From Tubulanus polymorphus (lineage: Eukaryota; Animalia; Nemertea): DNA of 64,000 bases. A program made the position numbers and the translations under genes. How positions within the stretch are numbered: the first letter of the stretch is position 1; each line of letters starts with the position of its first letter. Of the stretch, positions 33,303 through 59,756 are shown piece after piece. The notes under the pieces are model-generated. The model saw nothing but the letters and a program-made list of their open reading frames with translations. It was not told where the DNA came from and ran no database searches. The DNA lies in the NCBI RefSeq assembly GCF_964204645.1, contig NC_134028.1:12385263-12449262 (forward strand). The letters are read 5' to 3'.

Positions 33303-33459
33303 ATTTTAAAAAAAATAAATTAATCAAAATAATGAATATCTAGAATCCGAAATGACTTATCTGGACAATTTAATTGCTCCGCATAGATAGACAAAAGTAG
33401 TGAGATATTCAATTAATATTCAATTAATTAAAAAAATTATTTTTTTGGCTTTTTTTCTA

Positions 33460-33833
33460 AAATATTAATCCATTTTTTTTATTGTCAATTTTGGAATTTC
33501 AGAATTATTTTCATTTTTGATAGCAGTTGTTTCAGAATTATTAATATCATGAATTTGATTTGATTTCTTATACCAATTACACCCAATCAAAATGAATACA
33601 ATTAAAAATCAAACTGTAAAATATAGACATTTATCAAATATTCTATCATTAGAAGGAGTAGAAATAACAATATTTTCACTATTTTTATTAACAATTTTAT
33701 TACTTATTTTTTCTTTTACAGCTTTTTTATATTCTTGTGATTTAATTCCTAATTGCCGAGACCATTCAATTTGTTTCTGTGATCTCGGTTTTTTCTTCAC
33801 AGTTAATTCCTTCACTTCTTCCACCTCGCTCAT
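33460..33833 (-). pseudogene. Small basic membrane protein
   Basis: KKPRSQKQIEWSRQLG; homolog at 57295-57656. Confidence 0.5.
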
Positions 33834-34371
33834 TTATTATAGAAATATTTTTACTTTCAATATTTGAAAATGTTATAACTCCAGTTGATAATAATGTCAT
33901 AAATCCGCCTAATTGAAATGATAAATATCCAATCCATTTATCTAATTCAGTCATAACTAAATAATCATTTTTTAAATCGGAATATAATCTATTTTCATCT
34001 TCAATTGGTAGTATATAATTACATAATTTACTATAACCTTTTACTACATTTTCTGATATCGCGTCATTAATTCTAGCTGTTCTCGCGGCTTCATAAATCT
34101 TAAATAATCTAATAATTTCATCTGATTTCATTGTATCTAATTCATTATAAGTTAAATTTTTACCGATAAAATTTTTACATTTTCCAGATGCTATTAATAT
34201 TTCTAATTGATGTTTACAATAAAGATAATATTCATAATTATTATTTGTTGTAACATTATTTAAAGCACCATCATCTGGAATTAATTTGTTTTCTGTTATT
34301 CCTGAATGATCTAAAGTTTTTTCAATTGGAACATCACCATTTTTAGATTTTATTTTCTTTTCACCTACCAT
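33766..34371 (-). CDS. Conserved hypothetical protein
   Basis: Homolog at 56693-57295 (FKIYEAAR.ARIND.IS, LYSDLKND). Confidence 0.65.
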   Translation of the reverse strand: MVGEKKIKSKNGDVPIEKTLDHSGITENKLIPDDGALNNVTTNNNYEYYLYCKHQLEILIASGKCKNFIGKNLTYNELDTMKSDEIIRLFKIYEAARTARINDAISENVVKGYSKLCNYILPIEDENRLYSDLKNDYLVMTELDKWIGYLSFQLGGFMTLLSTGVITFSNIESKNISIINERGGRSEGINCEEKTEITETN

Positions 34372-34394
34372 TTATATAACAAAAAAAATTAGTT

Positions 34395-34680
34395 GTGTTG
34401 TTGCAACTAGAATTCAACTAGAATGTAACTAGAATTCAACTAGATTAACAAGCTAGTTGAAATATTGTTGTTTTCATTTATTTCTTGTTGAATTTTATTT
34501 GATTTTTGTTTCAACTACTAATAAATAGAATTCAACTAGAATGTAACTAAAAATATACTAGATTAACAAGCTAGTTAAAATATTGTTGAATTTTATTTGA
34601 TTTTTGTTTCAACTACTAATAACTAGATTTCAACTAGAATATAACTAAAAATATACTACATAAACAAGCTAGTTGAATTT
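34395..34680. repeat. Intergenic repeats (TAGAATTCAACTAGAA..ACAAGCTAGTT), about three units of ~110 bp
   Basis: Seen directly; related motifs at 56445-56640 upstream of the homologous gene. Confidence 0.75.
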
Positions 34681-34746
34681 AAATAAATTCATATTTAAAT
34701 GTGTGTTGTAATAATCTAAATAGTAATTTTGATCTTTTAATATTTT

Positions 34747-35289
34747 TCAACTTATCCATATATCATTATGTAAATCATGTGGAATAATATCATTTTCCTC
34801 AAGCGCATTTTTCATCGATTTTCTATCTTTATTGTAGAATAAAACTAGAAATCTTATGTTTTCTCTAAAGTCTTTAACAATTGAATTATATTTTTGATTT
34901 AAAACCCAAGTTGTTATCCCAAAATGTCTTCCAGAGAAAGCTAAATAGCATAACTCACTTTCTCTTACTTTTGAATCATGTAAATTTGCGCAATCATCTA
35001 TAATGAATAATGTATTTGATCCTTTATAAATATCTATTGCTATTTTAATACAATCATCTAAATTTTCTTTAACTGTTTTAGGATCTAATATAATAAATGT
35101 ATTATTTCTAGTAATATTTCTATCATAAGTTTGATTAAATTCATATGTTGGACAAAATAATACTATATTATCAAAATAGTTTTCATAAACAGTTTCTAAT
35201 AAATTTAATATAAAATAAGTTTTTCCACAATTTGTTACGCCAGCAATTAACATATTATGAGGCTCAAATATAAATAATTCCTTATTCAT
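34747..35289 (-). CDS. Genome-packaging ATPase (A32/FtsK-HerA type); C-terminus probably frameshifted
   Basis: Walker A GVTNCGKT, Walker B LFIIDD, SGRH arginine motif. Confidence 0.88.
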   Translation of the reverse strand: MNKELFIFEPHNMLIAGVTNCGKTYFILNLLETVYENYFDNIVLFCPTYEFNQTYDRNITRNNTFIILDPKTVKENLDDCIKIAIDIYKGSNTLFIIDDCANLHDSKVRESELCYLAFSGRHFGITTWVLNQKYNSIVKDFRENIRFLVLFYNKDRKSMKNALEENDIIPHDLHNDIWIS

Positions 35290-36340
35290 TTATATATTTT
35301 TAATTTTACTTGATAATATCCATTCATTGAATTTATCTGGCCATCCAACCCATTTTACTAAAGAATATTTTTTTCTTTTAATAGTTTTTGTTTTTAATAC
35401 TTTTTCAATTTTATATTCTTGTTCTAGATTTTCAGTAGTTAAACTTAATTCTTCTTCGTAAAAGTAGCCATCAACTTCTTCACCATCTAAATCTTCTAAT
35501 TTATAGACATATGGTTTTGCTGTTATTACCTTTTTTATTTTATATGTTTCTCTAGTAAAATTTCGATCGTATCCTTTATCAAACATCTTTTTATACTTAG
35601 AAATTCTAACATTTTGACCAACTTTAAATTTAGGTTCACCAAAATCATCTACAAGAAATGCTCCATATGAATTATTCCAAACAATTTCAGCATTTTCAGG
35701 TTTTCTAGCATCAATAGGTTTCATTCCAATAGAAGAATGATAAGAATTATTATATCCTTCTATCAATTTTGGTAAAACATCAATCCATTTAAAAGTATTA
35801 TTTGCTGTAAAATATTTCCACATTCTTGTTCTTAATGTTCCATCAAATCGTTCAACAACTGCTGCTTTTTATCCGATTTTGTTGAAAAATATTTAATATT
35901 ATGAATATCTAAGAGTTCATGAACAAGTGAATTATCAAACTCTTTTCCATCATCAAATTGTATTTTTTCTGGTTTTAGTTTATCATCCGAAAGAAATTTT
36001 CTTAAAACATTTGATGTTTGTACAGCATCTTTTCTATAAAGTGGGAAGCTCCATACATAACGACTAAAAATATCAATTATATTCAATAACCACCAATAAT
36101 CATCATTTTTATATTTTCTAACAATTTTTTTATGTGTTGTGTATGTTGGTTGTTCTAACATAAATTCATTTATATCTTTATATTTAACTAAATTTTGTGG
36201 GATTATCTTATCTAATTTATCTTGTTTTACTTGACGCCATATATTTTTGGTAGAAGAATAAGCAACCGAACTCTCAGGGTTGTAATATAAATTTCTTAAA
36301 TATTGTTCTTTAGTATTAGGAGTTTTTTTTACCACCCATT
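35290..36340 (-). pseudogene. Retroviral-type (rve) integrase with C-terminal chromodomain, frameshifted
   Basis: IDIFSRYVW, IQFDDGKEF, YNNSYHSSIGMKP, LVKWVGWPDKFNEW. Confidence 0.9.
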
Positions 36341-36369
36341 TATATATCGTTAATTTTAACTTTATATTT

Positions 36370-37593
36370 CTAATATTGAATACTATCTAATTGTGAATTT
36401 ACAATATTTAATTGTGCGTCAGATATAATATAAATGTGCATTTTAAAATTTAAGCTTCCTTTTTTCTTTTTCATGAAAAATTGTATTCCATCTTTAGTGT
36501 TCTGTAGTTTTTTCCCAGAACCATGTAATGAATTATCCTCTGTTGTTCTAAAATCTAACCATAATGCATATTTATTGCCGGTATAATAATCAATTTGATT
36601 AGTATTACAATTTTCAAATGATTTTACTTTTTCATTCATAAAATGTTTTCTAATTTCTGGCCATTGTGATCTATCATTCTCATTCCTTGACAAAATATTT
36701 TATTTGCTATTCCTTCGATAGTTATTTCTACTTTTGTTATTTCAGGATTATAATAATTATCTACCTTTATTGCACCATTAGAATATGTTGCAATAGTAAA
36801 AAATATTAATATACCTTTAATAGATCTTCTTGGGAAGTTAATATTCTCATTAATTATTTCATCATTTGCATTAATAGTTACAGTTTTAAATGTATCAATA
36901 TAATCATATAATAATGAAAATCCTTGATTGTATTGAGTTTGAATTGTGCTAGCAATATTTTCATTAGTTACTGTGTCATATTCTAAACATATATTTGATA
37001 ATTTATAACCCATATCTTTAACAACGCTAGATAATACAATTTCATTTACAGGAGCAAATGTTATCTCAAATATAATATCTTCTTGAATTATTTATCAATT
37101 CAAAGTCTAATGGAATTTTATATTTGCTTCCATAAATCTTTTTTATCAAATTATCTACAGCATTAGTTACTACAGCATTATTGGCTTCAGATCTTAATTT
37201 ATTATGGTTTTCCGATTGAATACCCTGAAATATCATATTATTTCTATTTTCTTTAGTTAAGCATAAATCTTTATAATGCATAAATAAATTATAATCATCT
37301 AATGAGAAAACTGTTTCTGGACCAATCTTTATTGTTAATTTTTTAATCAAATATCTTCCAACATTATCAACAACATAATTATTATCATGGCCAGTTACTT
37401 TTATATCAGCTGATAAATAAATACTATTTGGAACATAAAAAGTATTTTGTGTTAATCTAGGAATTCTAACATATAAAGTTTCATCGGGATTAATATTTGA
37501 AGGATTATGTGTAATTATATGATGTGATCTTTCTGCTTTAATAGCATTAGATATTCTAGAAATCTTAGAAGGACTTATATAACTCCCACTCAT
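36370..37593 (-). pseudogene. Major capsid protein (putative double jelly-roll), split by frameshifts
   Basis: ~400 aa beta-rich product conserved in three copies, next to the ATPase and integrase. Confidence 0.68.
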
Positions 37594-37617
37594 TTATTTA
37601 ACAAAAAAATTAATTAT

Positions 37618-39055
37618 TTATTTTTTATTATTTTTTTCTTGATATCTTTTTGATATCATATTCACTAACCCAAAAATAATAGCACTTACAACTGTAATTA
37701 AAAATAAAATAATATGTTCAGCAGCAAAGTTAAGAATATTACCTGCAGATTTCAATATAAAACCAACAATTGATGCAATAATTCCTGGTAAAGCTGCAGC
37801 AGATTTTTTAGATAGTTCCCATAAATATTTTGCTAATTTTTTCAAACCATCCTTAACTTTATCTTGTATAGAATTATTATCATTCGGGGGTTTATCTGGT
37901 TTATTTGGAGTAGGAGTAGATTTTAAAGCATTTGATATTGCTAAACCAATTGTTGTAAATAACATAGTTACAGCTGTTAGAATTGAAAGAATTGTTATTC
38001 CTTCTAATTTAAATAATAACTTTATTCTATCTTTCAATGATATTTAAGAATTTGGTTTTATCAACAAATCTTTAAAAATAACTTTTAATCTATTAATATT
38101 ATAATCATATGATTTTAATAATAATTTAATTTCTTCTTTCTGTACTTCTAAATTATCTTTTAAATTATTAATTTATTTTTCTAAACGTAATTCTTTTTGC
38201 CTATATTCTATTTCATCAATTACTTGATGATCTAAATCAGCCTTTAATTGTTCTATTTCTTTATTTTTATCAGTTAATTCTTTTTCTAAAGATCTCTTAT
38301 ACGTTTATCATGTGCAATTTTATCAGATGCAAGTCTTATACTTTTAATTTCTCTAATTGCTTCAACAGAAAATATATTATTTAAATCTTCTAATTGTTGA
38401 TCTGTTGCATCAATTAATCCATTCGGTAAAAGTTTTTCAATTGGAACTTTATTTGATTTAAGTTTACTAGTTTTGGAAGTTATATTCTGTTCAGTTTCTG
38501 TTTCTGATTTCTTTTTGATTATTTCATATAATTCATTAATTTTTTGTTTAAATACGTCTATATTATCATCTTTTTCTTTTTGCGTAACATCAGTTATTTC
38601 ATTACTATTACTTATTATTTTAATTCTATCTAGTTCTAATTTTTTAAAGTTGATTTTGCTATTATTTTTTCTTCTTTCTTATAAAAGATATCAATATAAT
38701 TATCACCTTTCAAATGATAATACCATTTACCATTATCTAAAAATTTTAATTTATCTGCCAAAGGTCCAACGTTTTCATCATTTATGTTAAATTTAGAAAT
38801 TTCAATTATATGTTTTAATTTAGGTATTTTGTTTAAATCATTTAAATCTTTTTTAACTAAATCTGGGTCTAAATTTTCAGGATTTAATTGTGATTCTGCA
38901 TTTTTAATATAATCAGGCATATTTAAATTATTATTATATCCTGGCTCATTACCATCATTAAAACTTGTTTCACTAAAATCAGGTTGTTGTTCATCAGTTA
39001 TACCAGGTTCATCTAAAGGATCCATTCCAATATCTTCTCCACCTTCTACATCCAT
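37618..39055 (-). pseudogene. Acidic N-terminus / coiled-coil / C-terminal multi-TM protein
   Basis: ORF pieces 38636-39055 and 37618-38037; homologs at 26700-28150 and 62239-63667. Confidence 0.65.
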
Positions 39056-39071
39056 TTATATAATAAAAAAA

Positions 39072-40397
39072 TTAAAATTTAAAATATAATATTCCTCCTA
39101 TAACAATTCCTATACAAGTTAAAGCTAATTTAGTATTTTCATGGAATTTATTATCATTATCATTTTTAATTATATCATGTTGAATATTATCAGTTTTTAT
39201 ATTTTCTTTAGTATTGTAATCTTTTATTTTAGAATCATTATTTAATCTAATATTCTTAGTTTTAGTTTCAGTTGATTGAATATGTTTTTTATTTTTTTCG
39301 CCTTCCATTAATTTTGGAGCAGCAATAATTTTTTTATTTATATCATTTAATCCAAATGAATTATTTATTGTTGCAGTTTTAATTAGATTATTATAACCAA
39401 TTATATTTCCCATCTTTAATACTAAATCATTAGACATAATTAATAGATTAGGGCGTATACAATAATTTAATCTAATATGTGATTTATCTAAATAATTTTG
39501 ATATCTTACAATGTTTTCTGGAATCGATCTATTTTTATCATTATGAATGGAATCTTCAAATAATACTTTAAATTGTTTCTGAGCATCGAATGAAGTGTTA
39601 TCATTTCCAATTATTGGGGATCTTGTTTCAACTTGCGCACCTAAAATACATATCAAATAAGTTCTAATTGATTGATTTATTCTTTGTATTCCAGCTTTAG
39701 TAAAACCTTCACTATTTTCTAAAATGAAATTAACCCAACCATTATTGTTTTGTTGTTGTATATTATTATAATATTTTGGTAATTCATTCCAATTTAGTGT
39801 TCTTATATCTGAATTTGTCATTATTTTTCCAAATTCTTTAGTATACAATATTCCTAATCCACCCATTGTTCCAATTCTTGCTCTAAAATCTTTATTTGAA
39901 TTAATATTAAATTCATTACATATTTTATAAAACTTAGAAAAATTAATATTATTATTCAATTCTTTAAAATATTTTGAACCTGGTAAAGGACATTCTAATT
40001 CATCTAATATTAATTTTATTTGAAAATAAGTATGAAATCTAAAAAGTGATAACATCAATGGTAAACTTGGTTTGTTTAAATGATCATTCCAACTAATTCC
40101 ACATCCTGTTGTTGCGCAATAAACAGCAAAATTTAATTGGTTCTGCCAATACCTCATATTAGATTTTAATAACCATTGTTTTGCCTCATTTAAATTTTTA
40201 AAATTAATTAAATAGACATGAAATATATTTTCCATCTTTGCATTAAAATTATTAGTTTCAGTAACATAAATTTCTAAATTAGTTAATGAATATAAAACTT
40301 CATTTCTATATGTAATATCTTTATTAAAATCTATTGCTGGAATATTATATTTAATTGATTTATTATATTGGAAAGCTTTTGGAAAACTATCTACCAT
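39072..40397 (-). CDS. Conserved hypothetical protein with C-terminal TM anchor
   Basis: Intact 441 aa; WQNQLNFAVYCATTGCG; homologs at 28167-29450 and 63684-64000. Confidence 0.8.
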   Translation of the reverse strand: MVDSFPKAFQYNKSIKYNIPAIDFNKDITYRNEVLYSLTNLEIYVTETNNFNAKMENIFHVYLINFKNLNEAKQWLLKSNMRYWQNQLNFAVYCATTGCGISWNDHLNKPSLPLMLSLFRFHTYFQIKLILDELECPLPGSKYFKELNNNINFSKFYKICNEFNINSNKDFRARIGTMGGLGILYTKEFGKIMTNSDIRTLNWNELPKYYNNIQQQNNNGWVNFILENSEGFTKAGIQRINQSIRTYLICILGAQVETRSPIIGNDNTSFDAQKQFKVLFEDSIHNDKNRSIPENIVRYQNYLDKSHIRLNYCIRPNLLIMSNDLVLKMGNIIGYNNLIKTATINNSFGLNDINKKIIAAPKLMEGEKNKKHIQSTETKTKNIRLNNDSKIKDYNTKENIKTDNIQHDIIKNDNDNKFHENTKLALTCIGIVIGGILYFKF

Positions 40398-40413
40398 TTA
40401 TATAATAAAAAAA

Positions 40414-40848
40414 TTAATAATTTATTAATTCTTTTAATAATTTATCTTGTTCTTCAACTGTTATATGGCCATTTAAACTTATTATATAATCTAGTGTATT
40501 CTTTAATTTATTAATTTCTTTTATATTAGTTTTAATTTTTTCTTTATTACTTTTTATATTTAATTTTGAACTTATACCAGTTAAAACACTTGAACTTAAT
40601 GCTAACACGCCAATTGATATAGCTAAAGGTGTTAATGGACTGAATATTGCTAAAAATGTTATTACAGAACTAATTGTAACCGAACCACTTATAATCAAAT
40701 AATATATAATTTTAGATTTCAAATATTTTTTTTTTTTTATCTTTAAGTCACTTTCAAATTCTAATATTTGTTTTTCTAAATATATTTTTAATTTAGTTTT
40801 GTTTATATCATGAGGAATAATATCAATACTATCAACTTTATCTTCCAT
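40414..40848 (-). CDS. Two-TM coiled-coil protein
   Basis: 144 aa with a hydrophobic hairpin; TAAATG start. Confidence 0.7.
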   Translation of the reverse strand: MEDKVDSIDIIPHDINKTKLKIYLEKQILEFESDLKIKKKKYLKSKIIYYLIISGSVTISSVITFLAIFSPLTPLAISIGVLALSSSVLTGISSKLNIKSNKEKIKTNIKEINKLKNTLDYIISLNGHITVEEQDKLLKELINY

Positions 40849-40867
40849 TTATTTAGAAGAAAAATTA

Positions 40868-41290
40868 CTAATTAGTCAATTTATATGCAACAAATATAAC
40901 AATAACTGTTCCACCTAAAATCCATATTATTTCATATTTCTGTTGTTCATTACTTGGGGTATAATAATCTGATAATTTAGGTTTGTATAGATGTTATTTT
41001 TCTTTATTGGTTACCGCGTAATATAAACTCATTGCATCATCAACTGATTGAAAATCTCTATGTGAAATCTTCTGATCATATAATTCTTAGTTAATATAAT
41101 CCATATAGTTTTGTCTCTTTTCTCTATATTCTTCCGCTGCTTTATTGTATTTCTCTAATGCTAAGTTATGTCTTTTTTGTTCTGTTAATGAACCATTTTT
41201 ATCAATATGCTTAAATAAATAACCACCACCAGTAAATGCTAAAGCGTTAACTATTGCCGATCCTATAATAGTTATAATTGCAGAAGCCAT
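40868..41290 (-). pseudogene. Small membrane/structural protein with internal stop
   Basis: MASAIITIIGSAIVNALAFTGG; homolog at 29917-30331. Confidence 0.65.
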
Positions 41291-41314
41291 TTATTTAGTA
41301 AAATAATTACGCAT

Positions 41315-41536
41315 TTATATGGGAGGAATATATTTTTGTTTTTCCAAATATCCAATAGTTAAATTAGATAAAGTAACTGCTAATGTTAATTTTAAAATAT
41401 CATTCATATCAAATCTATCAACATTAACACTTCCCATTTTAAATACTTTTTTTAATACCATTGAATAACCAACAGTTCCAACTGATAGTAAGGCGCCATT
41501 ATATAATCCAGTTATTATCCACTTATTATCACTCAT
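41315..41536 (-). CDS. Small hydrophobic protein
   Basis: 73 aa; several homologs in the window. Confidence 0.7.
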   Translation of the reverse strand: MSDNKWIITGLYNGALLSVGTVGYSMVLKKVFKMGSVNVDRFDMNDILKLTLAVTLSNLTIGYLEKQKYIPPI

Positions 41537-41539
41537 TTA

Positions 41540-41893
41540 TTAATTAAAAAAATTACTATCTTCAAAATATTTATTTAACTTAGTTATGATTATTTCAACA
41601 TATATTTCATTACTAGTTTCATTTGTATATATTTCAATTATTATTTTTTTAATATCATCGATGATAAAATCTTCGTCTAATTCATAAAATCTTAAAGATT
41701 CTCTAATTAAATTAGTAATCTTTTCTACATTTAAAGTTTCTTTATCTATTGTTGTTTCATACTCAAATGTTGTTTCATTAGAAAATGCAATATTTTTGAT
41801 ATGTGTAATTACATCATTAACGTTAAATTTCATTTCTTTCTCACGTTTAAAATCAAATCCAAAATATATGCTCGGCCCAACAGTTATATTCAT
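41540..41893 (-). CDS. Hypothetical protein
   Basis: 117 aa; homolog at 30582-30833. Confidence 0.65.
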   Translation of the reverse strand: MNITVGPSIYFGFDFKREKEMKFNVNDVITHIKNIAFSNETTFEYETTIDKETLNVEKITNLIRESLRFYELDEDFIIDDIKKIIIEIYTNETSNEIYVEIIITKLNKYFEDSNFFN

Positions 41894-41909
41894 TTATATA
41901 ATGAAAAAA

Positions 41910-42671
41910 TTACTCTCTACATCTTATAACTAATTCATAAATTACAGGAAAGTTATTCAAATCAATTAAATATCCATTGTGATTTCTTATTTCTAATTTA
42001 AAATTATTAAATTGAGGAATGCAAGGTTTAAAATCGCATTCTGTTAAATTATAATTTATTTGAGTTCCAAATTGTTTAACATTTTTTAGCGGTAAAATAT
42101 TTAGTATACTAGAACTACAAATTGTTTCTTTAGTTGCTTCGAAAGTTTTTGTAGGATCGATTTTTAAATTGCAACAAATATAAAAGTGTGTAAAAGGTAT
42201 TAAGTTTGATCTACCTTCTGCGTATGCTGTAACAATATCTGGGTTAATTCCTAACAGTTTACCTAAAGGTTTTCTTACTGTAAATTTAAATTGTTCGTCA
42301 TTAGCTAACCTAATCTTTATTTTATTAGAACTATCACTTTTTAAAATTCTAATACTAAATCCGGAATCACTTCCTAATTTAGCTCGAGCTTTTCTATTAA
42401 TTTCTTGTGCTAATGTATCTAAATTATATAATCCTGGTTTTAAATATATAAAAAACCATTTATTCCTTTGTTTGTAAAAGATTGAAAAAATTAAATGTTC
42501 TAGACTTTTATCCGTTATATTGTAAAATGAGTTACATAAACTTATATTTACTAATTTTAAATCAACACAATTCTTAAATTCTCTATCTAATTGAACTATT
42601 AAATTATGTGATTTATAATTTTTAAGTCTTCTAGAATCAACAAATATTCTGTATTCTTTTAATTCGACCAT
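41910..42671 (-). CDS. Putative minor capsid (penton-like) protein
   Basis: Intact 253 aa; conserved ends with a variable middle across four copies. Confidence 0.62.
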   Translation of the reverse strand: MVELKEYRIFVDSRRLKNYKSHNLIVQLDREFKNCVDLKLVNISLCNSFYNITDKSLEHLIFSIFYKQRNKWFFIYLKPGLYNLDTLAQEINRKARAKLGSDSGFSIRILKSDSSNKIKIRLANDEQFKFTVRKPLGKLLGINPDIVTAYAEGRSNLIPFTHFYICCNLKIDPTKTFEATKETICSSSILNILPLKNVKQFGTQINYNLTECDFKPCIPQFNNFKLEIRNHNGYLIDLNNFPVIYELVIRCRE

Positions 42672-42739
42672 TATTTATAACATAAAAAAATTACCGCTCA
42701 TCACTAAAAATTAATTTTAATAAAATTTTTCCTTAATAA

Positions 42740-44060
42740 ATGGATGAGAAGATACCATGCGAAATTTGTGGTGAACTTCTAAGAAAAAGTAATATGGCTC
42801 GACATATAAAAAAACATGATGAAAATTATAAACCCCCTAAACTAAACTGCCCAAAATGTAATAAATTATTCTCAAGAAATTATGTTAAAAAACATTCAGA
42901 GAAGTGTAAAATTAATGGCGCAACGGCTAATGTTGATAGTAATGAAAGTAATAGTAATTCTGTTGAAGTTGAACCTGAAATTATTTGGAAAAGACCTTTC
43001 TTATTCTATGACAAGGATAATATAAAAGATCATTTCTGCGAGCCTTGTCGAATAAAATATAACCCTGAAAATATAGAAGATTGGGAGAATCATCAATTTC
43101 GTAAAGTACATATAGATAAAATTTCTTATAAATTTGAAACTGAATTCAATGAAAGAAAAAATAGTTTATTAGAAAAAATAAAATATGAGAAAACGTTACC
43201 AGATAATAAAGAAACAGTTGAAAAGTTAGAAAACAATATAATGAATTAACAAGAAAAACATATTATTGTAAATATTGTAAATTGATTATTACAACAAGTA
43301 ATTCAAATCTACATAATAGAACAATAAAACATAAAGAAAACGTAAGAAAATACCAAGAGCTTAATGAAGATCTATTACCAATAAATTATAAACGAAAATG
43401 CCCACAATGTAGTTATGCAACCTTAAGGCAAGAAGGTACTGTGTTATTTTGTAATGAATGTGGATGGCAAAAGAATTTATAGGGTGAAGAAAAAACTAGA
43501 GATTTTCTCATAGAACCAAACTTAAATTATCTGGATGAAATTTTTAAAATATTTTCTATAGAAGATCCGACACCAGAATATATGCAATGGCTTGAAAAAA
43601 TGAAAATGATAGAAAATAAAAATGGTGAAATAACTAAAAAAGATATTATAAAAACAATTATTCCATCAACATTTCACACAAAACAAAAGAAAATGTATTT
43701 ATATTTATTATTTAACGATTATTATGAAAAACCTAAATTAACAGAAGAAGATATGGAAAATATAAAAAAAATATTCAAACAAATATTAATGTATCATTTG
43801 GAAAATAGAATAACAGATTCAATTAATTATGAATTCTTTTTAAATAAGATTGTAAATTATTTAAACATCGATATTATAATTCCATCTGACGAATTAACAA
43901 ACAAAAAGAAACAAAGAGAGCGAGATGAAATAAGATAGAACTTTTTTTAAATGAGAAAAATGAAATGGAAGAACCTAAACAAATTATACAAGAACAATTA
44001 AATGAAAATGAAGAAGCCAATAGTGATTTCGAGTATGATGATATTGATTTTATGTTTTAA
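42740..44060 (+). pseudogene. Multi-zinc-finger protein with acidic tail
   Basis: CEICGELLRKSNMARHIKKH, CPKC..H, CPQC..CNEC; frameshift and stops. Confidence 0.78.
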
Positions 44061-47000
44061 TGGCCATAAGGTAATGTTTTTATACCATCATCTAAAATAT
44101 GCCTTTTATCATCAAATGGATTCAAACTAGTTTTTTCAACTTCATTAATGTACATCTCGTGATCTTCTGATCTTAAACAATTCATTTTGTGTTTCATTAC
44201 AATTTAGTTATATAAACACTTTATATAATCTTGAAATTCTATATGTTTATCAACCACATGTTTTGTCATTCCTTTTAACTTTTAAGCTTCATGATCTTTT
44301 GTTCTATAACTATACATTTTACTTCTTATCCCAACAAATTCAATCATTTCATCACCCCCTAATTCATCTTTAAACTTACCAGGAATCTTTTTATTATCAT
44401 TGCTAAATAGTTCATGATCTTTGGGATAATTGCTAAAATCAAAATGATGTTTTAATGTTTTTAAGTCTTTTGTTATGTCATTTGTCTTGATTTTTAGTAT
44501 GTACGCATCCGTATTTTTGGCTATTAATGGAAATCCACAGTTAAATGTACCATCTTCAGTTGATAAATTATAAACATAATCTGATGGGTTATATATTTCA
44601 AATAAATCTTTAACTTCTTCTGTTAATTCTTTTTCTACATGCCTTAAATTAAAACAATTTGGTTTAGATTTAATTAATTCTATATTCATATTAAATCCTA
44701 ATGAACTATATAATATATTTAATCCTGATATAGCAACTTTTCCTTTCTGTGCAAATGTTATCTTTTTATCCTTTGTAAATTTTTTAGTGCCATCTGCGGC
44801 ATAGAATCCAATGAAGAACCATTTTCTTAAATCATTTTTTGCATTTAATACATAATCTGGTACTATCTTTTCTTTTGTTGAAGTATTACTTTTCACTATT
44901 GCATGAATATAGAATTCATCATTATATTTTATAGCAAAATCTTTAGGATTATTTACAAGTATTCTATAAACTGCTGATGATTTCATAACATCTATGATTT
45001 TAAATGTTTTATGAGAATAAACTTCTTCACAGAATTTCTTAATTCTTTCTAATAATTTTAAGTCTTGATTACATAAATACCAACAATATTTATTACCCCA
45101 AACATAATTATACACACCTGCTGAACCATCACCCATGAAAAATCCTTTGATAAAATATTCTTTTTCGTCTAATGTTTCGGGTTCTATATTATAAATATTA
45201 TCAATAATTTCATCAAATGACATATGATTCATTCTTTGGAAAAATCTTTTATGTAATCATTCATCTCCAATTTTTATATCAGTTGGTTTTATTTCATCGC
45301 CATTTCGTTTAATTAAACTATGACATTCTGTAACATCTACAAACCCTAATTTAGTTCTAACTCTATAGATTTTCTTATTTGTTTTATGCCTAATAATATT
45401 CTTTAATTTTTTCCATCCATTTCTTGTCCAAACATCCATTATCCATTTATTTGTATTAATTCTTTTTCACCATATGAAATATAACATTCATTTTGTTTTG
45501 GAATTATTTCTGAAATTCTTCTTATCAATATTTTATCATTACATTTAAATAATATTGGGGTGTCAGCTGTTACAGAATCAAAATATAATATTTCAATATG
45601 CTTTTCCCCAAAAAGTGGTTGTAAAACATTATAATAAAAATCATACATTAATAATTTTGATACTTCTAAAACAGTTGAACCAATAAATATAGGTTTATTA
45701 AATTTCATTGACGTTCTTTTTAATTTAACTGCTGTTAAATAATCTTCAAATCTTTTATTTCCTAAATGTCTAGGACTTGATTGTAGGTGTCTTAATCTTT
45801 CAGAATTATTTACTAATCCAATATCATTTCTATTTCTAATATTTTCACATGTTTTGCCATAAAAACTATTATTCATTAATTTGAAGAAATCTTTTTCAAA
45901 ATCTGTTTTTGATATGGTTCTCTGTTGAGTATTAAAATCTATATATTTTTCTAACCACTTCGATTGATTAAATTCAATATATCTATGTACTTTCTTTAAT
46001 TTCATTCCTTGTTTTAGATAAAATTTTAACATTCTGTAATGAACAATATAATTGTATTTATTATTTTGAGTAAGTATTAAGTTTTCTGTAAAAACATGAT
46101 CTTTCGGTTTTATTTTCTTCTGGTATTCACTTAAATAACTATCATCTACAGTTAAATGTTCTGGGCAATAAGGTAAGTTTCTTGTTTTAAACTTTATATT
46201 TTCAGGATATTCTGAATCAACTACAAAGAAATAACCAATTGGTGCTTCATCTTTTAAACTCGCAATTGCGCTTTCCCAATCAGTTTTATCATCATTTTCA
46301 ACTTCTGTTAATATAAAATTTTTATATGGTTGAGGTTGCATCATTGCCCAACCATATAAATTATTGGCGTCATTATATAATAATTTATATTCATCATTTG
46401 CTTTAAAATACCTATCTCCCATAACACCACTAATTCCACCTCTAATTGATTTTTCAAATAATAAAACCATATCTGGTTCTTTAAATAAATCTAATTCTAC
46501 ATTTGTATATTTTAAACCACATTGCCAGGTTAAACCAGGACTAGAGTAGCAATAACAATAACAAGGATCAACATTAAAATGATTCAAATTAACTTCCCTA
46601 AATTTTTCAAATATGTCAGCTTATATCATAACATCTGATTTTAAATATAAATCAACTAATTCAATGATTTTTCATCTTAAAATGGTTCCAAATATTTAAT
46701 GTTCTATTAAACATTTCGTCTTTCACATACTCCTCTTTTAATTGATCATAAAATTAATCTTTTAATAATTCTGTTACATTAAAATCATTGTGTGTTTTAT
46801 AAAATGAATAAGGAATTGCGCCTTTTTATCTCAATAATTTAAAATCTTTTTCATTTGGATAGTAATATTGAGTTATAACAAAATCATTATCAACTAAACT
46901 TTTTGATAAATTATCTAATGAACTTGCTAGAAATCTATAAGAATCTAAAAATCTAATGCAACCAAATTGAAAATAAATATAATTTTCAGATGTTTTAGCT

Positions 47001-49121
47001 AATAGTTTAAAATCATATTTTCTTACATTTACACCATTCATAGCATTATATTCTTCTATTTCCTGATCAATTGCACCCAATTTTCCCGATAATTGTTTTA
47101 TAAATAGATGGGTATCATAGCCTGATAAATTATGAAATAATATTGGTACGAAATTAACTTTCTTAGCTTGTAAATTGCAATCTTCATGAGCAGCTCCACG
47201 ATATTTTGAATTTAAATGATCATGATCTCTAACTTTTTTATCAAATGAATAAAAACGTTTTTCACAATAACAACAATGAGTTGCATAATTAAAATCAATT
47301 TCATCTTCTTTTGTCATAACTATTCTTTTATTTTTGTTTAATAATTTTGCAAAATCACTTTCTAATTCAATCATTTTGTCACAAAAATCATTAACTACAT
47401 CTTCACCTCTAAAAGAAATATATTGACTTTCATATAATTCGGGATAATTTGATTTGATGTAAATTCCATAAGCAGCAGCTCTTGATGAACTTTTTTAATT
47501 GTATTTATAATTGGCGGGTCTTGTGTTGTGTCTTCATTTAATTCATTTCCTTTATCCATTGATTTTAATAATTGCTTTTTGTTATATATTTTTTTTCTAT
47601 CTTGATCAGTTAATTCTTTATTCAACGATTCAAAATCCCCATAAATTACAAATGGAACAATATTCTTAAATTTATGATTAGTAAATTTAAATTTATAATC
47701 TTTTTCTGTTGGCATTATTAATTTACAAAAATCTGTATTATCACATAATTCTTTATGTTTTAATAATGTATTCTCAGTCATAAATTTAGATAAACATTTT
47801 CTACATAGATAAATTTTATTATGGTGATCACTTTCTGTTCTAAAGAATAAATCAATTTGTTTTAACCACATATAATGTTCATTTTCATCTTTTTTTGTAA
47901 TATAAAAAATCTATAGCATTTTCATCATCATAATATTCTGTTAAATATAAAGCTTCCAATGTATAATCTTTAATATTTTCACCTTTTGTCTTTGGTAATT
48001 GCATTAATTCAAATACATTTATTCTTAAATTATTAACTTTTTCTATTTTAGGAATCATTTTTATAGTTACTGGATATTGATCAATTTTATATAATGTTTC
48101 ATATTTCCGGTAATTTCTTATTCTAAAACTATGCGTCATATCTTCTGTTGGGTGTAAACAACTAATAATTGACCATAGAAAACATTTATTATCTTCATTT
48201 TGAACATTTATTACTGCTTTTGTTGTAAATGGTAATTTAATATAAGATGATGCTTTAATATCCTTTTCTGTTGTAAAGTTTGAATCATTTTTAAACATTT
48301 TATTACTTTTTGATGTTTTATTCCTTTTTGTATTGTAAACATTTAAATCTAAATATATAATTTCATTCAATGTTAAGCCAGAACCCTCAAAATATCTTTC
48401 TTCAATATGACGTTTAAATTCATTAAATATTTTTTCTCTTTTATTTGTGTTTTTGAAATTATTTCTTCAGAGTGTGTTTGAATATTATAATTCATTTTTT
48501 CTTCTGACTTTATAAAACTTACTTTCCCAGAGATACTAATTTTTGGATATTCAACATCTGTTATCAAATCTAGTATTTTTTCTATTATTTCATTAAATTT
48601 ACTATAATCTTCTATTGTTGTTCCTTTAAAAAATCTAAATATAATAGCTGCAGGACCAATTTTACTACGTAATGTTTCTAAAATTTCAATTGTATCTTTT
48701 ATTTCTAGTGAATCAATATAATTTCTAACATTTTCCATGTAAGGTTTATTTGAAATGGATTTAGTTTTTGAAGTTGGTTTTTTTACTTGTTGAGGTTTAT
48801 CATCAAAATAATCTTTTCCTAAAACATTATTACTCAAATTTTGGCGGTGTTTTTGTGATTCAATATGTCTATTATAATTCCTTTTTACTATAAATTCATT
48901 ACAAACTTCACATTTTATTTCATCCACATTCATATTTTCTAATCTTTCTTTTCTTTCATTGGAATTTTCTGGAGTTTCAAAATCTATTACATTTTTTATA
49001 TGATTTGCAGTTTTTCATGTCGTGATTTTTGGGATTTATCGATGTATTTTTTACAATATTGGCAATAATATTGATTTTTATTTACATTATTGTTTTCTGG
49101 CTGGTGTTCATTCTCCCCCAT
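44057..49121 (-). pseudogene. pPolB polyprotein copy 3 (Zn fingers, terminal-protein region, OTU-like Cys/His segment, exonuclease with EndoVII-like insert, polymerase with intein)
   Basis: NKCFLWSI..HYMW, FVIYGDFES, CCYC..VRDHDH..YRGAAHEDCN, FHNLSGYD, DANNLYGWAM, KLMNNSFYGK; start codon lies inside the TIR. Confidence 0.95.
44513..45576 (-). mobile_element. Intein (~355 aa) with LAGLIDADG homing endonuclease in pPolB copy 3
   Basis: YFD-[SVTADTPI..DVTECHSL..YFIKGFFMGDGS..WFFIGFYAADG..VYNLSTEDGTFNCGFPLIAKN]-TDAY. Confidence 0.92.
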
Positions 49122-49206
49122 TTATTAGGAAAAAAAATTGCTTGTGGTGATGAGTGGTGTCTCGACCGCTCGACCTCTGGTATGAAAGCCCACTTTCCCA
49201 ATTACT
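49112..49206 (-). repeat. Right TIR ending ...CCCAATTACT (5'-AGT terminus)
   Basis: Matches the left TIR and the copy 2 end at 21430-21489. Confidence 0.88.
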
Positions 49207-50553: not shown

Positions 50554-53548
50554 TCAGTATTCCTTTAAACGATAAGCAGGCAAATCTGCCATAATTTGCA
50601 ACTCTGTTTTTGCAGCGAATTCACGACAGAAAACGCACAATGTGCAAATCGGTTTCGCTAAACGTCTAACTCCAACGATCCAATACTTTCTGCGAACTGT
50701 GGCGCATGTAGCGGCTATTCCGGGATGTCCCAGTTTCCAGTGACAATGTCGTACTATCAGATATGATAAATAACAGAACGTAGTTAATAACGGCGGTTTA
50801 TACTCTTCATACGGATGAAGATTATTCGTTCTTGGTTTGATACGAACTATACCTTCGTCATCTATATATGGTGATAGCGATTGAAACGCGTTTTTCTTCT
50901 TTACTAGCGGCAATATTTCTTGATCAGAGCTTTTTCCGCGGATTTGATTTCATCAGGAGTAATACACCCAGTTTCAGGCGGTTGATTTTCGCCTTTAGCT
51001 CGAAGATTGCTGATGTATCTATCACGATATGCGGTTACTCTTATAGCGCGATTTAGATCTGCGAAGCGTTTTAGGTACGGATCATCAGTTGACTCATCGG
51101 ATTTAACTACGCTAACGTTCGCCTTCTTTATGACCGATTCTTTGGTGATTTCATCTTCCGGATTGGTTAGTTAGTCTCTGGGTTTCGGCCATTCTTCCTC
51201 CGGTCGCGCGAGAAACGCGTCTCCTGTGGACCTGCGGCCACTGAGTTCTGATGGTTCTAACCCTCTGGTTAGGTCGTCACACACATTGAACTCAGACGGT
51301 ATGTGACGCCACGAATTTACATCGGATTTCATGTGAATTTCACCTACTCGAACTGCTACGTATGGTTTCAAACTACGTGACTCTGACGAAATCCACGATT
51401 TAGCGATCATCGAATCAGTGAATAAGATTGCTCGCTCGAAATCAGCCGAGGGTGACAAGGTCCGTGATCTCCCCGTCGTACTTCCCCGCGAGTTCAGAGC
51501 CTTTTTTCCAACTGCTGCTCGAGACTATTTAAACAGTGGGAAAGTTGGACATCGTAGCTGCATTACTTACAAACTGTCACACTTGCTGTTATGGTGGAAT
51601 TGTCAATCAATTCTTCGGATTAGATGCTCCATCTTTAGTTGAATATTCAAGACCAGTAAACTGAGAACTATAATAATGAGCTGCTACTTTTAGAAAACTG
51701 TACTGTTTAATAAATTTCCACTTCTCTTTAAGGCAATAATTCTTTTTGTTATGTCATTATTTGACTCTAGATCTTTACTCTTTTACATCGGATTTCATGT
51801 GAATTTCACCTACTCGAACTGCTACGTATGGTTTCAAACTACGTGACTCAGACGAAATCCACGATTTAGCGATCATCGAATCAGTGAATAAGATTGCTCG
51901 CTCGAGATCAGCCGCGGGTGACAAGGTCCGTGATCTGCCCGTCGTACTTCCCTGCGAGTTCAGAGCCTTTTTTCCAACTGCTGCTCGAGACTATTTAAAC
52001 AGGCTTCAATTTGCTTATAATTTTTAGGTTCCTTCTGATACGGTATCTGAATCATCCAGCGATTTTCTTCCGGCAACTTGATAGCGGAATTCCGAATTGT
52101 CTGTTCTTCCAACTTCTCTTTAGTCGAGAGATTCTTATCGCAATAATTCCGAGTGCAACACGGGTTGACGGCGATACACATTTCTTCAGCTCTAATTAAT
52201 TCTTCGAGATTTACAGGTTCGAGTTTTTCAACCCTAGCGAGATTCACATTACCCGAAAGAATCGGCTCGCCAGAATTACGTCCGAATACGACAGGACCGA
52301 AGATAGATCTTTTGAGCGCTATATTGCCTTTGACAATTATTTCTCCGGCGTGGAACTTCACATTGTCGTTTCCAAACAGTAAATCTACTGAACCATGCGG
52401 TCGATTGACAGAAGTAGAAAATCCGAACAGTTCGCTGATTTTGTCCATTTTCACTTCGGGAATTACACTGCAAATTTCAGGAATACCAATAGCCCAGATT
52501 TTGTGCAACGCATTCGGGCGCGTAGATCTGACTAACAAACAATATTCCTTGGTCTGCAGACGCTCTTCTTCTCCGCCCACTTTGCCTAGATTCACTTCTG
52601 TCGACCGATGTGGTGAACTTAATTCCTCTGCGATTTCATTACGGATAAGCGTAAAATCGGACCCACTATCTATAAGCGTACACGCTTGATACGAACTATC
52701 ATTTTCCGGATGACAGATATTAACGCATACTAGAGGTAACAGTCCTTCACCCGTTTCTAACGCTAATCCAGTCTGACCGGTTTTAGTTTTTGTGAAATCA
52801 GCCCCGTGTAGTAACAGGTGATTAAAATATTCACAATTTTCAAGACTACATTTTTTTTCCTGCCTACATGGCTGTCTAAACCGGTGATATCTAAGGCAAA
52901 ACCAACAAAGCTTCTTTTCTCTGGTCGCAGCTAATCTCTGATCAGGCGTCATTGACCAAAACCTCGGACACTCTGCGACTAGATGCAGATCTTCCACGCT
53001 ACAGATACAACACTTTTTCCTCGGTTTTAGTGGCTCGATTTTAACAGATGAACGCTCTACGTTTGAATGCGAAGACGTGTTTGATGTTACGGATGGCGGT
53101 GACTGAACAATATTCGTCTTACCAGATTTATCAGATTTATATTTCGCAGTTCTTACATTACCCACTCTGCGCTTTACCTCTATCTCTTTGCGCATCTATG
53201 TCAGCAGATTTTCGATATCATTATCTAGGTCGTTTTCTACCTGATACCTAGCCCACAATTCATTATCATCACTGCTCAGCTTACTTTCTAAAACGGCGAT
53301 AGTAGTGCTGTTATCTAAATCTGAGGAACGTTTTGATTCCTGTAGCACAGTTCTAGCTCGGTGAATTAAGTGATAACGCTCTTCAAATTGCTGTACTGAG
53401 GTGACGTTCGGAGCTTTGTTAAATTCCGATAAAATGTCATCGCTCACCTTACGTGCATCACCATAAACGGAATCTAACCGCTCCCAAGCCTCTTCAATAT
53501 CGGCAACCCCATCAATCCACTTTTTCGCAGAACTCGGCAGACACTGTC
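50554..53548 (-). mobile_element. BEL/Pao LTR retrotransposon fragment (gag, protease, RNase H, integrase Zn finger; RT missing)
   Basis: Zn knuckles (CWFCLRYHRFRQPC), LIDSGSD, FTDSMI..W.HIPSEFN..DDLTRG, H..LGH..C..C; internal duplication 51315-51530 / 51785-52000. Confidence 0.88.
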
Positions 53549-53550
53549 AG

Positions 53551-53955
53551 TAGGGGTTTAGTTGGTTCAGGCCAAAGGTCGAACGGTCGAGCTCATTAAA
53601 AAATAAATATTAAAAGTAATTTAAAACTATAATATATTTTCATAGCCGTGTGCATTTTATATTATAACTAAATATTTATTCTAAGATATTAATAATTTAA
53701 ATTTTAAAAGCATATCGTATTAAATCAATTGGTCGCTCCGCTTCGCTGCCGCTCCACTCCGCGACCAATTGATTTATTTACAATACACAAATTCATATAA
53801 TCAAATATATTCAAATAATAATAATCATTCTATTATTTAACTAAAATACACACGGCTATGAAAATATATTATAGTTTTAAATTACTTTTGATATTTATTT
53901 TTTAATGAACTCGACCATTTAACCTTTAACCTGAACCAACTAAACCCCTATTACT
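53551..53955. repeat. ~405-bp fold-back hairpin
   Basis: ~105-bp outer stem, 15-bp inner stem AAATCAATTGGTCGC/GCGACCAATTGATTT, GC-rich loop. Confidence 0.9.
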
Positions 53956-54091
53956 CTTAAAATATTTATATATATGAATAACATATATATGAATAACATA
54001 TATAAGTAATTAGAAAAGTAGGCTTTCAGATCAGAGTACGAGCTCTTATAGAATAGATATGTAGATACATTTTAAACATTATTTCAATATT

Positions 54092-54278
54092 AGTAATAGG
54101 GGTAAAAGGCTTTCAGATCAAAGGTCGAAGGGTCGAGCTCGTAAAAAATGAAAATAACAATAATTTATAGTTGAATTAGTCGCGCACACTCCTAATTCAA
54201 CTGTAAATTATTGTTATTTTCATTTTTACTCACTCGCCCCTTCAACCTTTAACCTGAAAGCCTATTACCCCTATTACT
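54092..54278. repeat. 187-bp fold-back hairpin AGTAATAGGGG...CCCCTATTACT
   Basis: ~87-bp stem with loop TCGCGCACACTC. Confidence 0.9.
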
Positions 54279-54527
54279 CTTAAAATATTCATATATATAT
54301 GAATAACATTTAAATGAATAACATTTAAATTGACAGATTATTCAATATAAAAGTGTAAGCTCTTATAGAATAGATATATAGATATATTTACAACATTATT
54401 TCAATATTCATATTTGTATGAGTTAGATTTTTAAACATTAAAAGTGTTAGTAAAGTGTGATTGAAATAATTCATATTTAAATCATTGAACTTCTAAAATC
54501 AATTTAGTAAAAAAATTTGATATTAAA

Positions 54528-55197
54528 ATGGAATCAGAACAACCACAAACTATCAATATTACAAATAACACTGGTGTCATAAACATATACTACAAGAAGT
54601 GTTCTAAATGTGAATTAGATAAATTAGCTATAACAGAATTTAATAAGCGTAAGATTAGCAAAGATGGTTTTCAATATTGCTGTAAAACTTGTACTAAACT
54701 ATATACCAAACAATATCGAAAAGATAATAGAGAAGCTTATAATGATTATATGACAGAATATATGAGAGAAAGATATCAAACAGATCTTAATTTTAGATTA
54801 AAACAATGTTTAAGATCTAGATTAACACAATTATTCAACAAAGAAACACATTCAGAAACACTATCTAATTTATTGGGTTGTTCAGATTAATTCTTAAAAT
54901 CATGGATAATATATCAATTCGACGATAAAATGAAGATAGATAATTATGGTGAATACTTTCATATTGATCAAGTGTTGCCGATTTCTAAATTTGACATGAA
55001 TGATGAATACAATAAAAAAACTTATTTGGAATTGGAATAATCTAAGACCTTTAGAAAAGAAAGTAAATATAATTGAATCTAATAAACTAGATTTACAGTT
55101 ATATTTAGATCAACTGGATAAAGCAAAGACATTTGTTGAATTATGGAATAGTATTTCACAGAATCAACCGCATTCTGAGGTTTTAATCAGTGGTTAG
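54528..55197 (+). pseudogene. HNH-type endonuclease of a kind common in large DNA viruses, disrupted
   Basis: CSKC..EF..DGFQYCCKTC, LRSRL, LLGCS, NYGEYFHIDQVLPISKFD, WNNLRPLEKKVN. Confidence 0.75.
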
Positions 55198-56692: not shown

Positions 56693-57295
56693 ATGACAAA
56701 GAAATCGAGTAAGAATAGTATTGATATTGAAAAAACATTAGATGATTTGGGCATTAGTGATAATAAGGATCCAGTGGTTTCTAATTCTATTCAAGTTAAT
56801 AACAATATTGATTATGAATACTATTTATATTGTTAACACCATCTTGAGTTACTAATTGCTGGCGGGAAATCTAAACAATTTTTAACTAAGACCATTACTT
56901 TTCAAGAACTAGACTCTATGAAACCAGATAAAGTAATAAAATATTTTAAGATTTATGAAGAAGCTAGATTGGCTCGAATAAATGATTCTATTTCAGATAG
57001 TATTATAAAATGTTATTCAAAATTATGTAACCGGTTAATGAAGATTAATGATGAAAATAAATTATATAGTGATTTGAAAAATGACTCCTTAGTTATGACT
57101 GAATTACAAAAATGGGTTGGATATGCTTCATTTCAATTAGGATCGGTTATGACATTAATTTCTACCGGCGTCATAACATTTTCGAACATCAAACCTATGG
57201 AATATAAATCAGGTAAGAACGAAACAGATGTACTACAACCAAACAGTGAAACAGAAAATGAATCAGAACAAAAATTAACTAAAATAAACGAGTGA
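56693..57295 (+). pseudogene. Homolog of 33766-34371 with internal stop
   Basis: YEYLLYC*HHLELLIAGGK, FKIYEEARLARINDSIS. Confidence 0.7.
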
Positions 57296-57656
57296 TGGCG
57301 TTAAGAAAAAGCCTAGATCCGAGAAACAAATTAAATGGGCAAGAGAATTAGGTAAAAGATCTTCAGAATTAAAAAAAGCTAAGAAAAAGAAATTAACTGA
57401 TATAAATGAATCCCAGACTTTATCTGATGTTGATTCAAATAATAATCCATCTAATTCTTCTAATGCTGGAAGTAATTATAAATTATATATTACAACTGGA
57501 TTAGTAACAGTTATTATATTATCCGGTGTAATATATAAATCAAAATTCAAATCTGATGATAAAGATGATTCCAATGACAATAAACCTATCATACCAGAAA
57601 ATAAGTCAAATCATAAAGTCATTGAAACTAAATCTAAATTATTATCAATGGATTAA
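57295..57656 (+). pseudogene. Small basic membrane protein
   Basis: KKPRSEKQIKWARELG plus a TM helix. Confidence 0.55.
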
Positions 57657-57662
57657 AATAGA

Positions 57663-59356: not shown

Positions 59357-59384
59357 AAATTTATAATTTGGAATATTATAGAAA

Positions 59385-59755: not shown

Positions 59756-59756
59756 A

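Follow-up and report, generated by a model that had tools for sequence, protein, structure and literature searches.

A Pol-c LAGLIDADG intein in the protein-primed DNA polymerase of Polintons from the nemertean Tubulanus polymorphus: filled and empty alleles, a likely old large-virus ancestor and likely persistence by homing

The intein of the Mimivirus family B DNA polymerase (PolB) occupies the Pol-c allele (residues 1053-1403; Ogata et al., 2005, PMC549080), and inteins have also been reported in virus-like DNA polymerases encoded by nuclear scaffolds of algae and protists and in Anaeramoeba (PMC10710043); surveys of their distribution describe inteins as absent from metazoan genomes (PMC5784728). 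The Polintons (Mavericks) and the adintoviruses have been described in turn (Starrett et al., 2021, PMC8502044; Barreat and Katzourakis, 2021, PMC8097293), nuclease domains of the HNH and VSR types have been reported inside the protein-primed polymerases (pPolBs) of Polintons (Jeong et al., 2023, PMC10748475), and a passage of Krupovic et al. (2024, PMC11071308) suggests that such pPolB nuclease domains "result from intein invasions", which is the nearest published statement found. The present work concerns a stretch of 64,000 nt from the nemertean Tubulanus polymorphus (contig NC_134028.1, positions 12,385,263 to 12,449,262 of the forward strand; hereafter the window, whose own numbering is used throughout), an A+T-rich cluster of decayed Polinton fragments in which three decayed copies on the minus strand have polymerase motif C interrupted, as YFD-S...N-TD, by a LAGLIDADG intein. 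In the literature searched no intein of a Polinton or of a protein-primed polymerase was met with, supplements, InBase, Repbase and subscription papers lying outside that literature and possibly holding such an annotation; the word "intein" has no occurrence in the main texts of PMC10748475, PMC8502044 and PMC8097293, nor "LAGLIDADG" in that of PMC10748475, and the intein passages of PMC12220804, PMC3671162 and PMC13768754 hold no Polinton intein.

The reading preferred here, with a probability of roughly 0.7, is that a Pol-c LAGLIDADG intein sits in motif C of a Polinton polymerase and is present in this species as filled and empty alleles, and that it likely had an old large-virus ancestor and likely persists by homing. 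The parts of the interrupted gene are as follows.

44513-45576, minus strand: intein coding region, copy 3 (1064 nt; Ser start, Asn end, +1 Thr; one frameshift, near 45440, and one stop, at 45257-45259)
6981-8049, minus strand: intein, copy 1 (1069 nt; three frame changes, near 7780, 7305 and 7040)
16695-17665, minus strand: intein, copy 2 (971 nt; stops, small indels and a deletion of 91-98 nt towards the 3' end)
45256-45576, minus strand: Hint N-terminal splicing region (blocks A and B) of copy 3, from motifs, with TIGR01445 above its cut-off on the matching part of copy 1
44660-45170, minus strand: LAGLIDADG homing endonuclease domain of copy 3 (limits approximate; motifs start at 45145 and 44809; PF14528)
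44513-44575, minus strand: Hint C-terminal region (blocks F and G) of copy 3, from motifs
45577-49014, minus strand: pPolB N-extein, in several broken frames, collinear with the intact relative P0003; Endonuclease VII (HNH)-like domain within 46826-47494
44060-44512, minus strand: pPolB C-extein, beginning at the +1 Thr of motif C

The split of motif C at these three locations had been proposed, together with a list of splicing motifs, in an initial annotation made from the letters alone, and the limits hold to the base. The start YFD-SVTADTP and the end N-TD are found in all three copies, which accordingly share the N-terminal Ser, the C-terminal Asn and the +1 Thr of that list (Asn and a +1 Thr, Ser or Cys are also found in 22/22 relatives), and both LAGLIDADG helices are recognisable. 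The remaining motifs hold for two of the three copies: block B TxxH is represented by TECH (copy 3) and TEDH (copy 2), while copy 1 retains the His and not the Thr (20 of the 22 relatives have TxxH by pattern), and the C-terminal ends IAKN, ILKN and ICLN give a K-N end in two, the penultimate His being missing in the window inteins as it is in Mimivirus. The proposed check against Hint and LAGLIDADG profiles came out positive, with 29 bits for TIGR01445 intein_Nterm on the N-part of copy 1 (cut-off 24.5) and 28.4 bits for PF14528 LAGLIDADG_3 over two stretches of copy 3 with its stop read through as X (cut-off 22.5); PF14890 Intein_splicing stays below its cut-off of 35.8 on an N-truncated piece of copy 3 (21.9 bits) and exceeds it on the whole relatives P0004, P0005 and P0327 (41.9, 42.4 and 37.7 bits). 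The surrounding polymerase matches the protein-primed PolB profile PF03175 with 31.9 bits on copy 2 (cut-off 25.8) and 62.3 bits on P0003. In a protein atlas the P0003 intein region scores 0.91-0.93 to LAGLIDADG/intein clusters, the sole PDB sequence match of P0003 is PI-PkoII (E 4e-4), and a single-sequence structure model of relative P0085 has a confidence (pLDDT) of 31.5. Going by motifs and profiles, the insert is a class 1 intein with a LAGLIDADG endonuclease, at the Pol-c allele, in a protein-primed Polinton polymerase, for which splicing and cutting are predicted. A free-standing nuclease or an intron is ruled out by the Hint ends and by the in-frame insert of intact relatives.

The window copies are relics of a family and not working members of it. 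Of 235 reads that derive from other copies and cover the stop of copy 3, 228 disagree with the window sequence there, and at its frameshift most reads have an indel; because the reads from other copies differ there, both lesions appear to be private to copy 3. The precursor frame is open in relatives P0003, P0008, P0327-P0329 and P0336. Between copies 1 and 3 the Hint N-part (45256-45576 against 7750-8049) has 1 silent difference in 59 sites, and in the nuclease 20.5 of 95 silent sites differ, a mosaic that suggests recombination between copies.

Presence and absence of the intein were followed in raw genomic reads labelled as the same species (run X6, of which about 12% was read), 4505 of which were mapped, being accepted from 80% likeness. 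A precise empty-site joint, 44512 to 45577 with exactly 1064 nt skipped, is found in 41 reads with 26 starts, a further 51 reads connect the two flanks but carry a few substituted letters next to the site, and read depth is 132-266 inside the insert versus 500-740 just beyond both of its edges. Since reads bridge the flanks across the exact insert, empty alleles coexist with filled ones in the species. An assembly artefact is ruled out by these reads and by four other families that show the insert. Filled and empty alleles also occur together in three more families, namely P0103/P0106, P0336/P0432 and the P0327 family, in which 7 filled and 6 empty alleles are found among 15 listed members. 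When filled and empty alleles of the P0327 family are compared, 10 of the 45 positions from -15 to +30 differ versus 7 of 805 elsewhere (p 9e-10), and for P0336/P0432 the corresponding counts are 3/45 and 0/812; empty alleles also differ among themselves, at 10/45 positions around the site versus 13/800 elsewhere. Two empties of the P0327 family (P0421 and P0423) have Cys at +1 of motif C, which reads YTD-CDS there, beside YFD-TDA and YGD-TDA, an unusual variety for a catalytic motif.

Both nuclease aspartates and full length (337-354 aa) are retained in all 22 Polinton-type inteins, a set made up of near-copies from about nine families. Between the window copies dN/dS, obtained by simple counting with transitions uncorrected, is 0.30, 0.34 and 0.35 for the intein over 314-346 codons, and 0.13-0.40 for the exteins; for the nuclease domain alone pN/pS is 0.30 (p 1e-4) and 0.43 (p 1e-3); the N-terminal Hint parts of copies 1 and 3 are too similar to each other for a selection test. 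Judged from these substitution counts, the nuclease is under purifying selection.

The copy 3 intein matches 82 longer proteins, the best six of which are polymerases of Polinton type that bear an intein at this same position, 46-63% identical and several of them intact, and the remaining 76 of which carry PF00136. The nearest relative is P0003 (intein 62-63% identical; extein 60% and likewise nearest), and a search with the P0003 region added P0327 (136 cluster members, on contigs of up to 1 Mb), P0328, P0329, P0336 and the truncated P0354. At E 0.001 a representative search returned 1794 proteins; in the 150 best of them the extein matches a viral-type PolB or nothing wherever the intein could be delimited, 22 were not delimitable, and two short ones are Polinton-type fragments. 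A scan of viral contigs with the copy 3 intein gave 23 pattern matches and no relatives, a degenerate junction pattern had no match on viral contigs, and in an alignment-based scan no Polinton-type extein was found among the matches listed from 80 viral and 80 metagenome loci. A scan with the extein yielded three loci; two of these read as empty and were used in the tree, and the third was omitted, its motif not fitting the pattern.

These relatives alter the placement given in the initial annotation, which had given a match to Mimivirus-type inteins. The Pol-c site is indeed that of archaeal and Mimivirus-type PolB, the insertion in motif C being at the same place in the archaeal polymerases L166-L176 and in Mimivirus, and the motifs cited for the match are present in the Mimivirus PolB (P0370, intein 1053-1403). 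Mimivirus-type inteins are nevertheless not the nearest kin, the Mimivirus intein being 38% identical to copy 3 versus 45-62% for the best Polinton relatives, and the K-N end does not mark them: among 359 delimited Pol-c-site inteins the residue before the terminal Asn is Lys in 173 and His in 143, and it is His in 17 of the 22 Polinton ones. The window intein instead groups with a Polinton intein clade that is widespread, as the annotation had envisaged as the contrary outcome, and that is not already described in the literature searched.

The relationships were examined in trees built from thinned sets (209 of 351 rows with FastTree; 51, 44 and 33 chosen rows in the others, eleven rows, ten of them long or redundant, having been removed for the 33-row mixture-model tree), and window copies 1 and 2 were left out as their read-through is unreliable; branches that bear a star are called starred here. 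In the FastTree result 11 Polinton inteins form one clade (99) within a 34-row group (99) that has a common G(F/Y)PLI C-terminal motif; with IQ-TREE and 51 rows the Polinton inteins are supported at 99/81 (starred) and the G(F/Y)PLI group at 93/97; in the 44-row tree, to which extra Polinton rows and Mimivirus were added, nine Polinton inteins form one clade at 100/100 (starred) with its sister unresolved; and under the 33-row mixture model 7/7 Polinton inteins come together at 100 (starred), sister (95, starred) to a G-PLI group of giant-virus and phage-type PolB. The pair of Polinton and G-PLI clades sits in a wider viral Pol-c diversity in all four trees, with moderate support on the deeper branches, the archaeal Pol-c inteins form the outgroup in those of 209 and 51 rows, and the Mimivirus intein lies well outside the Polinton clade (the best giant-virus-type intein is 40% identical to copy 3). 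Giant-virus minor capsid genes, P8 or P11, are present in 3 of 5 sister-group loci tested. By these sequence relationships, the closest kin outside Polintons are giant-virus PolB inteins. Thus, of the earlier proposal that the intein moved from a large-virus PolB into this element, the old viral link stands on viral Pol-c kinship, whereas a transfer into the present element does not agree with a Polinton-resident clade supported at 100/100 (starred).

Separate intein and extein trees, as the initial annotation had recommended, give largely agreeing groups with P0008 as the exception. Because the two trees and the identities run together, the intein appears to be an old resident of Polintons. 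The P0008 intein is 42-49% identical to other Polinton ones and stands beside the window intein (97/84, starred), and a BLAST comparison of its polymerase with five of the others gives no match below E 0.001; because the intein is related while the polymerase is unalignable, P0008 is best read as a jump of the intein between polymerase classes. For P0336 and P0432-P0434 the polymerase is of Polinton type with Rho_N repeats, and the intein is of another C-terminal subtype; the P0336 intein is 50% identical to that of the giant-virus-type L018 and lies apart in both trees, although a single clade for all ten is not rejected (approximately unbiased test, AU p 0.198). P0336 is possibly a second, independent invasion.

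Some further holders of viral-type Pol-c inteins were encountered. Phage-type family B polymerases (P0187, P0189 and P0357; P0187 belongs to phrog_262) have the G-PLI subtype. Records titled Promethearchaeota or Heimdallarchaeaceae (L161, L162 and P0382) hold polymerases with viral-type Pol-c inteins, and L166 is of archaeal type at the same site. Giant-virus-type PolB with intein in the metagenome-assembled genome (MAG) records L164 and L165 of Bacteroidales probably reflects mis-binned contigs.

Several observations weigh against the reading preferred here. No open reading frame runs through the precursor in any of the three window copies, all of which are broken. Given the 80% read threshold, some of the empty alleles may come from sister subfamilies, and run X6 possibly represents another individual than the source of the window. 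P0103 and P0106 have 6 differences in 746 extein residues and none near the site; the site-clustered differences of the other families are known from proteins alone and are compatible with co-conversion or with escape; and in the P0327 family the flank of the filled alleles agrees with that of another filled family at 26-30 of 38 residues and with that of the family's own empties at 23-28 of 38, counts that do not discriminate. No donor family could be named for these flanks. The extein tree recovers the same groups as the intein tree, which plain vertical descent predicts likewise. With respect to origin, the G-PLI sister group is monophyletic in two of the four trees (98/97, starred, and 95, starred), leaving the Polinton clade sister to it and not nested, and the direction of transfer rests on mostly unstarred deeper branches and a long-branch root. 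Finally, the target DNA and seven giant-virus sites have 13-17 of 30 bases alike; because this match is poor, the first jump would have been a rare event and not ordinary homing, as Ogata et al. likewise argued for a transfer between archaea and Mimivirus (PMC549080).

The similarity of the two trees could be explained by one old invasion after which the intein was passively inherited with the polymerase and now and then precisely lost, with a nuclease that no longer homes. Intein and extein identities do run in parallel in the HNH-bearing families (49/47, 71/74, 77/82 and 58/51%), and the filled P0327-family alleles form one clade (100/99, starred). This explanation is nevertheless unlikely in view of a nuclease that is under purifying selection and whole in every Polinton-type intein, though 33 of the 359 Pol-c-site inteins are under 300 aa; differences moreover concentrate at the site between filled and empty alleles that are 98-100% alike elsewhere, and P0008 requires a horizontal jump.

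Flow in the reverse direction or from a third party, in which Polinton-like or phage polymerases gave the intein subtype to giant viruses, would suit the sister position of the Polinton clade, the long stem leading to it and the presence of the subtype in the phage-type polymerases, but the diversity of viral Pol-c inteins is much greater and encloses both clades in all four trees, PF00136 is carried by the great majority of the copy 3 intein matches, and no Polinton-type extein is found among the matches listed from the 160 viral and metagenome loci; this direction is accordingly less probable still. The least credible account, to which very little weight is given, is that a co-infecting virus of Mimivirus type passed the intein recently and directly to the present element, which was then endogenised. 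The common Ser start, the VWT..GW..IRHKT.KKIYRV stretch and the K-N end speak for it, and a VLTF3-like gene and late-type starts (below) indicate contact with a large virus; however, the nearest kin are Polinton inteins, the Mimivirus intein is distant both in identity and in the trees, the G+C content of the intein (0.24-0.26) equals that of the extein (0.22-0.29), and the clade structure contradicts it.

In inteins of this design, Ser-Asn-Thr splicing restores the catalytic motif, and gene conversion of alleles that lack the insert is driven by the nuclease. Under the preferred reading of an old, homing Polinton intein, the precursor of an intact copy would be translated whole, and Ser1, the block-B His, the block-F Asp and the terminal Asn would, to judge from the motifs, excise the intein and join Asp to Thr, restoring YxD-TD in a polymerase that would be inactive until splicing is complete. 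Once released, the nuclease would cleave motif-C DNA wherever an allele is empty, and repair templated by a filled copy would insert the intein plus some flanking letters. A multicopy family could offer both allele types in one nucleus or virus factory, so that meiosis or a haploid stage would be unneeded; it is likely because such a family supplies both alleles that the intein can live in an animal Polinton and not in animal genes. Empties with altered letters around the site would escape, as the clustered differences suggest, and the large-virus transcription machine may have been the meeting place for the first capture. A wider proposal is held tentatively, at a little less than even odds: that the intein is giant-virus-derived, colonised Polinton motif C on at least one occasion and perhaps two (P0336), jumped between polymerase classes and is still homing in animal nuclei with escaping empties, as a natural gene drive in a transposon family that acquired it because these Polintons are replicative parasites of a large DNA virus.

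The Polinton copy that holds intein copy 3 extends over about 32911-49187 and is bounded by 74-nt inverted repeats, at which no 6-bp target duplication was seen, the element ends probably being shortened. Its other features and a neighbouring retrotransposon are listed here.

32911-32984, no strand: left inverted repeat (74 nt, 95% complementary to 49114-49187; element probably shortened)
49114-49187, no strand: right inverted repeat, pairing with 32911-32984
34747-35289, minus strand: A32-like packaging ATPase (PF04665, 52.5 bits)
35290-36386, minus strand: rve integrase with chromo domain, frameshifted (PF00665 E 1e-7; PF00385 E 1e-4)
36370-37593, minus strand: probable major capsid protein, split into three (PF16903 Capsid_N E 7.5e-4, short of its cut-off)
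43483-43938, plus strand: gene for a VLTF3-like late transcription factor (shares 73% identity with window 1820-2140, itself PF04947 with 30.1 bits versus 25)
50554-53546, minus strand: remnant of a BEL/Pao-type long terminal repeat (LTR) retrotransposon (DUF1759 E 4e-5; Integrase_H2C2 E 5e-9)

On the broken integrase piece rve scores 32.5 bits versus a cut-off of 32.6, and it scores 37.2 bits on the copy at 57657-58568. No match to the adenovirus-type cysteine protease was found among the scanned open reading frames, the copies being decayed and short frames lying outside the scan. A T-run followed by TAAATG opens a frame of at least 60 aa at 9 of 17 such sites versus 66 of 649 ATGs, and within 32911-49187 a TAAATG start is found in 11 of 26 listed open reading frames, mostly with a T-run ahead; such starts, which we take to have the form of poxvirus late promoters, together with the VLTF3-like gene suggest that the element was expressed by a large-virus transcription machine. 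The retrotransposon remnant, 1.4 kb from the Polinton element, has a triple Cys-His knuckle and a DSGS protease motif that presumably assign it to the BEL/Pao type, a subclass described as metazoan (PMC3118150). The window itself contains no host gene. Elsewhere in the window a near-perfect tandem duplication (1784-6584, period 2148, 99.5% identical) represents a recent duplication or an assembly error, palindromic patches lie in or between Polinton fragments (12708-12867, 23434-24236, 53551-54278 and 59340-59787), and a more distant Polinton-type module on the plus strand (integrase and ATPase, at 54489-54890 and 56837-59350) has its polymerase absent from the window.

A Polinton intein clade with intact copies and with empty targets in one genome would be an exception to the absence of inteins from metazoans, and it would show that the missing factor is a population of filled and empty alleles and not chemistry. 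The homing cycle becomes testable inside one genome by comparison of copies. The intein would also provide a dated marker of DNA passing between Polintons and large DNA viruses, with a bearing on virophage-like behaviour of animal Polintons; nuclease-mediated competition between co-infecting viruses has been proposed in a preprint on BsV (10.1101/214536). The cysteine-free splice junctions and the new nuclease family may have practical use.

Among known systems, the inteins of Mimivirus PolB and of other giant-virus PolBs stand close to the Polinton intein, which shares with that of Mimivirus the motif-C site (YGD-TDS there, YFD-TDA here), Ser1, TxxH, the Asn end, the +1 Thr, two LAGLIDADG motifs and a length of about 350 aa. 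However, the extein of Mimivirus and other giant-virus PolBs is Pol-delta-like and RNA-primed whereas that of the Polinton intein is protein-primed, the C-terminal subtype is G-FPLI in the Polinton intein and AGVGEMI in that of Mimivirus, and, unlike the giant-virus intein, the Polinton one is integrated and multicopy and shares its genome with empty alleles. Archaeal Pol-c inteins and PI-PkoII are distant in sequence, although those of the MAG polymerases L166-L176 occupy the same site. The HNH and VSR insertions of pPolBs likewise place a nuclease inside the polymerase, and the window polymerase has an Endonuclease VII-like domain as well; those insertions, however, lie at other positions and have no reported splicing domain, while here a full Hint domain with LAGLIDADG lies in the catalytic motif. 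The algal, protist and Anaeramoeba cases resemble the present one as virus-borne inteins in nuclear genomes with intragenomic spread, but they concern endogenised giant-virus or host genes of non-animals and not a transposon-borne protein-primed polymerase. The element itself resembles known Polintons, Mavericks and adintoviruses in its pPolB, rve integrase, A32-like ATPase, probable capsid protein and inverted ends; no protease gene was found in the scanned frames of this copy. The intein of protein-primed Polinton polymerases, an old resident clade with signs of live homing in the family, is thus a new form of the Pol-c allele and extends that allele to protein-primed polymerases.

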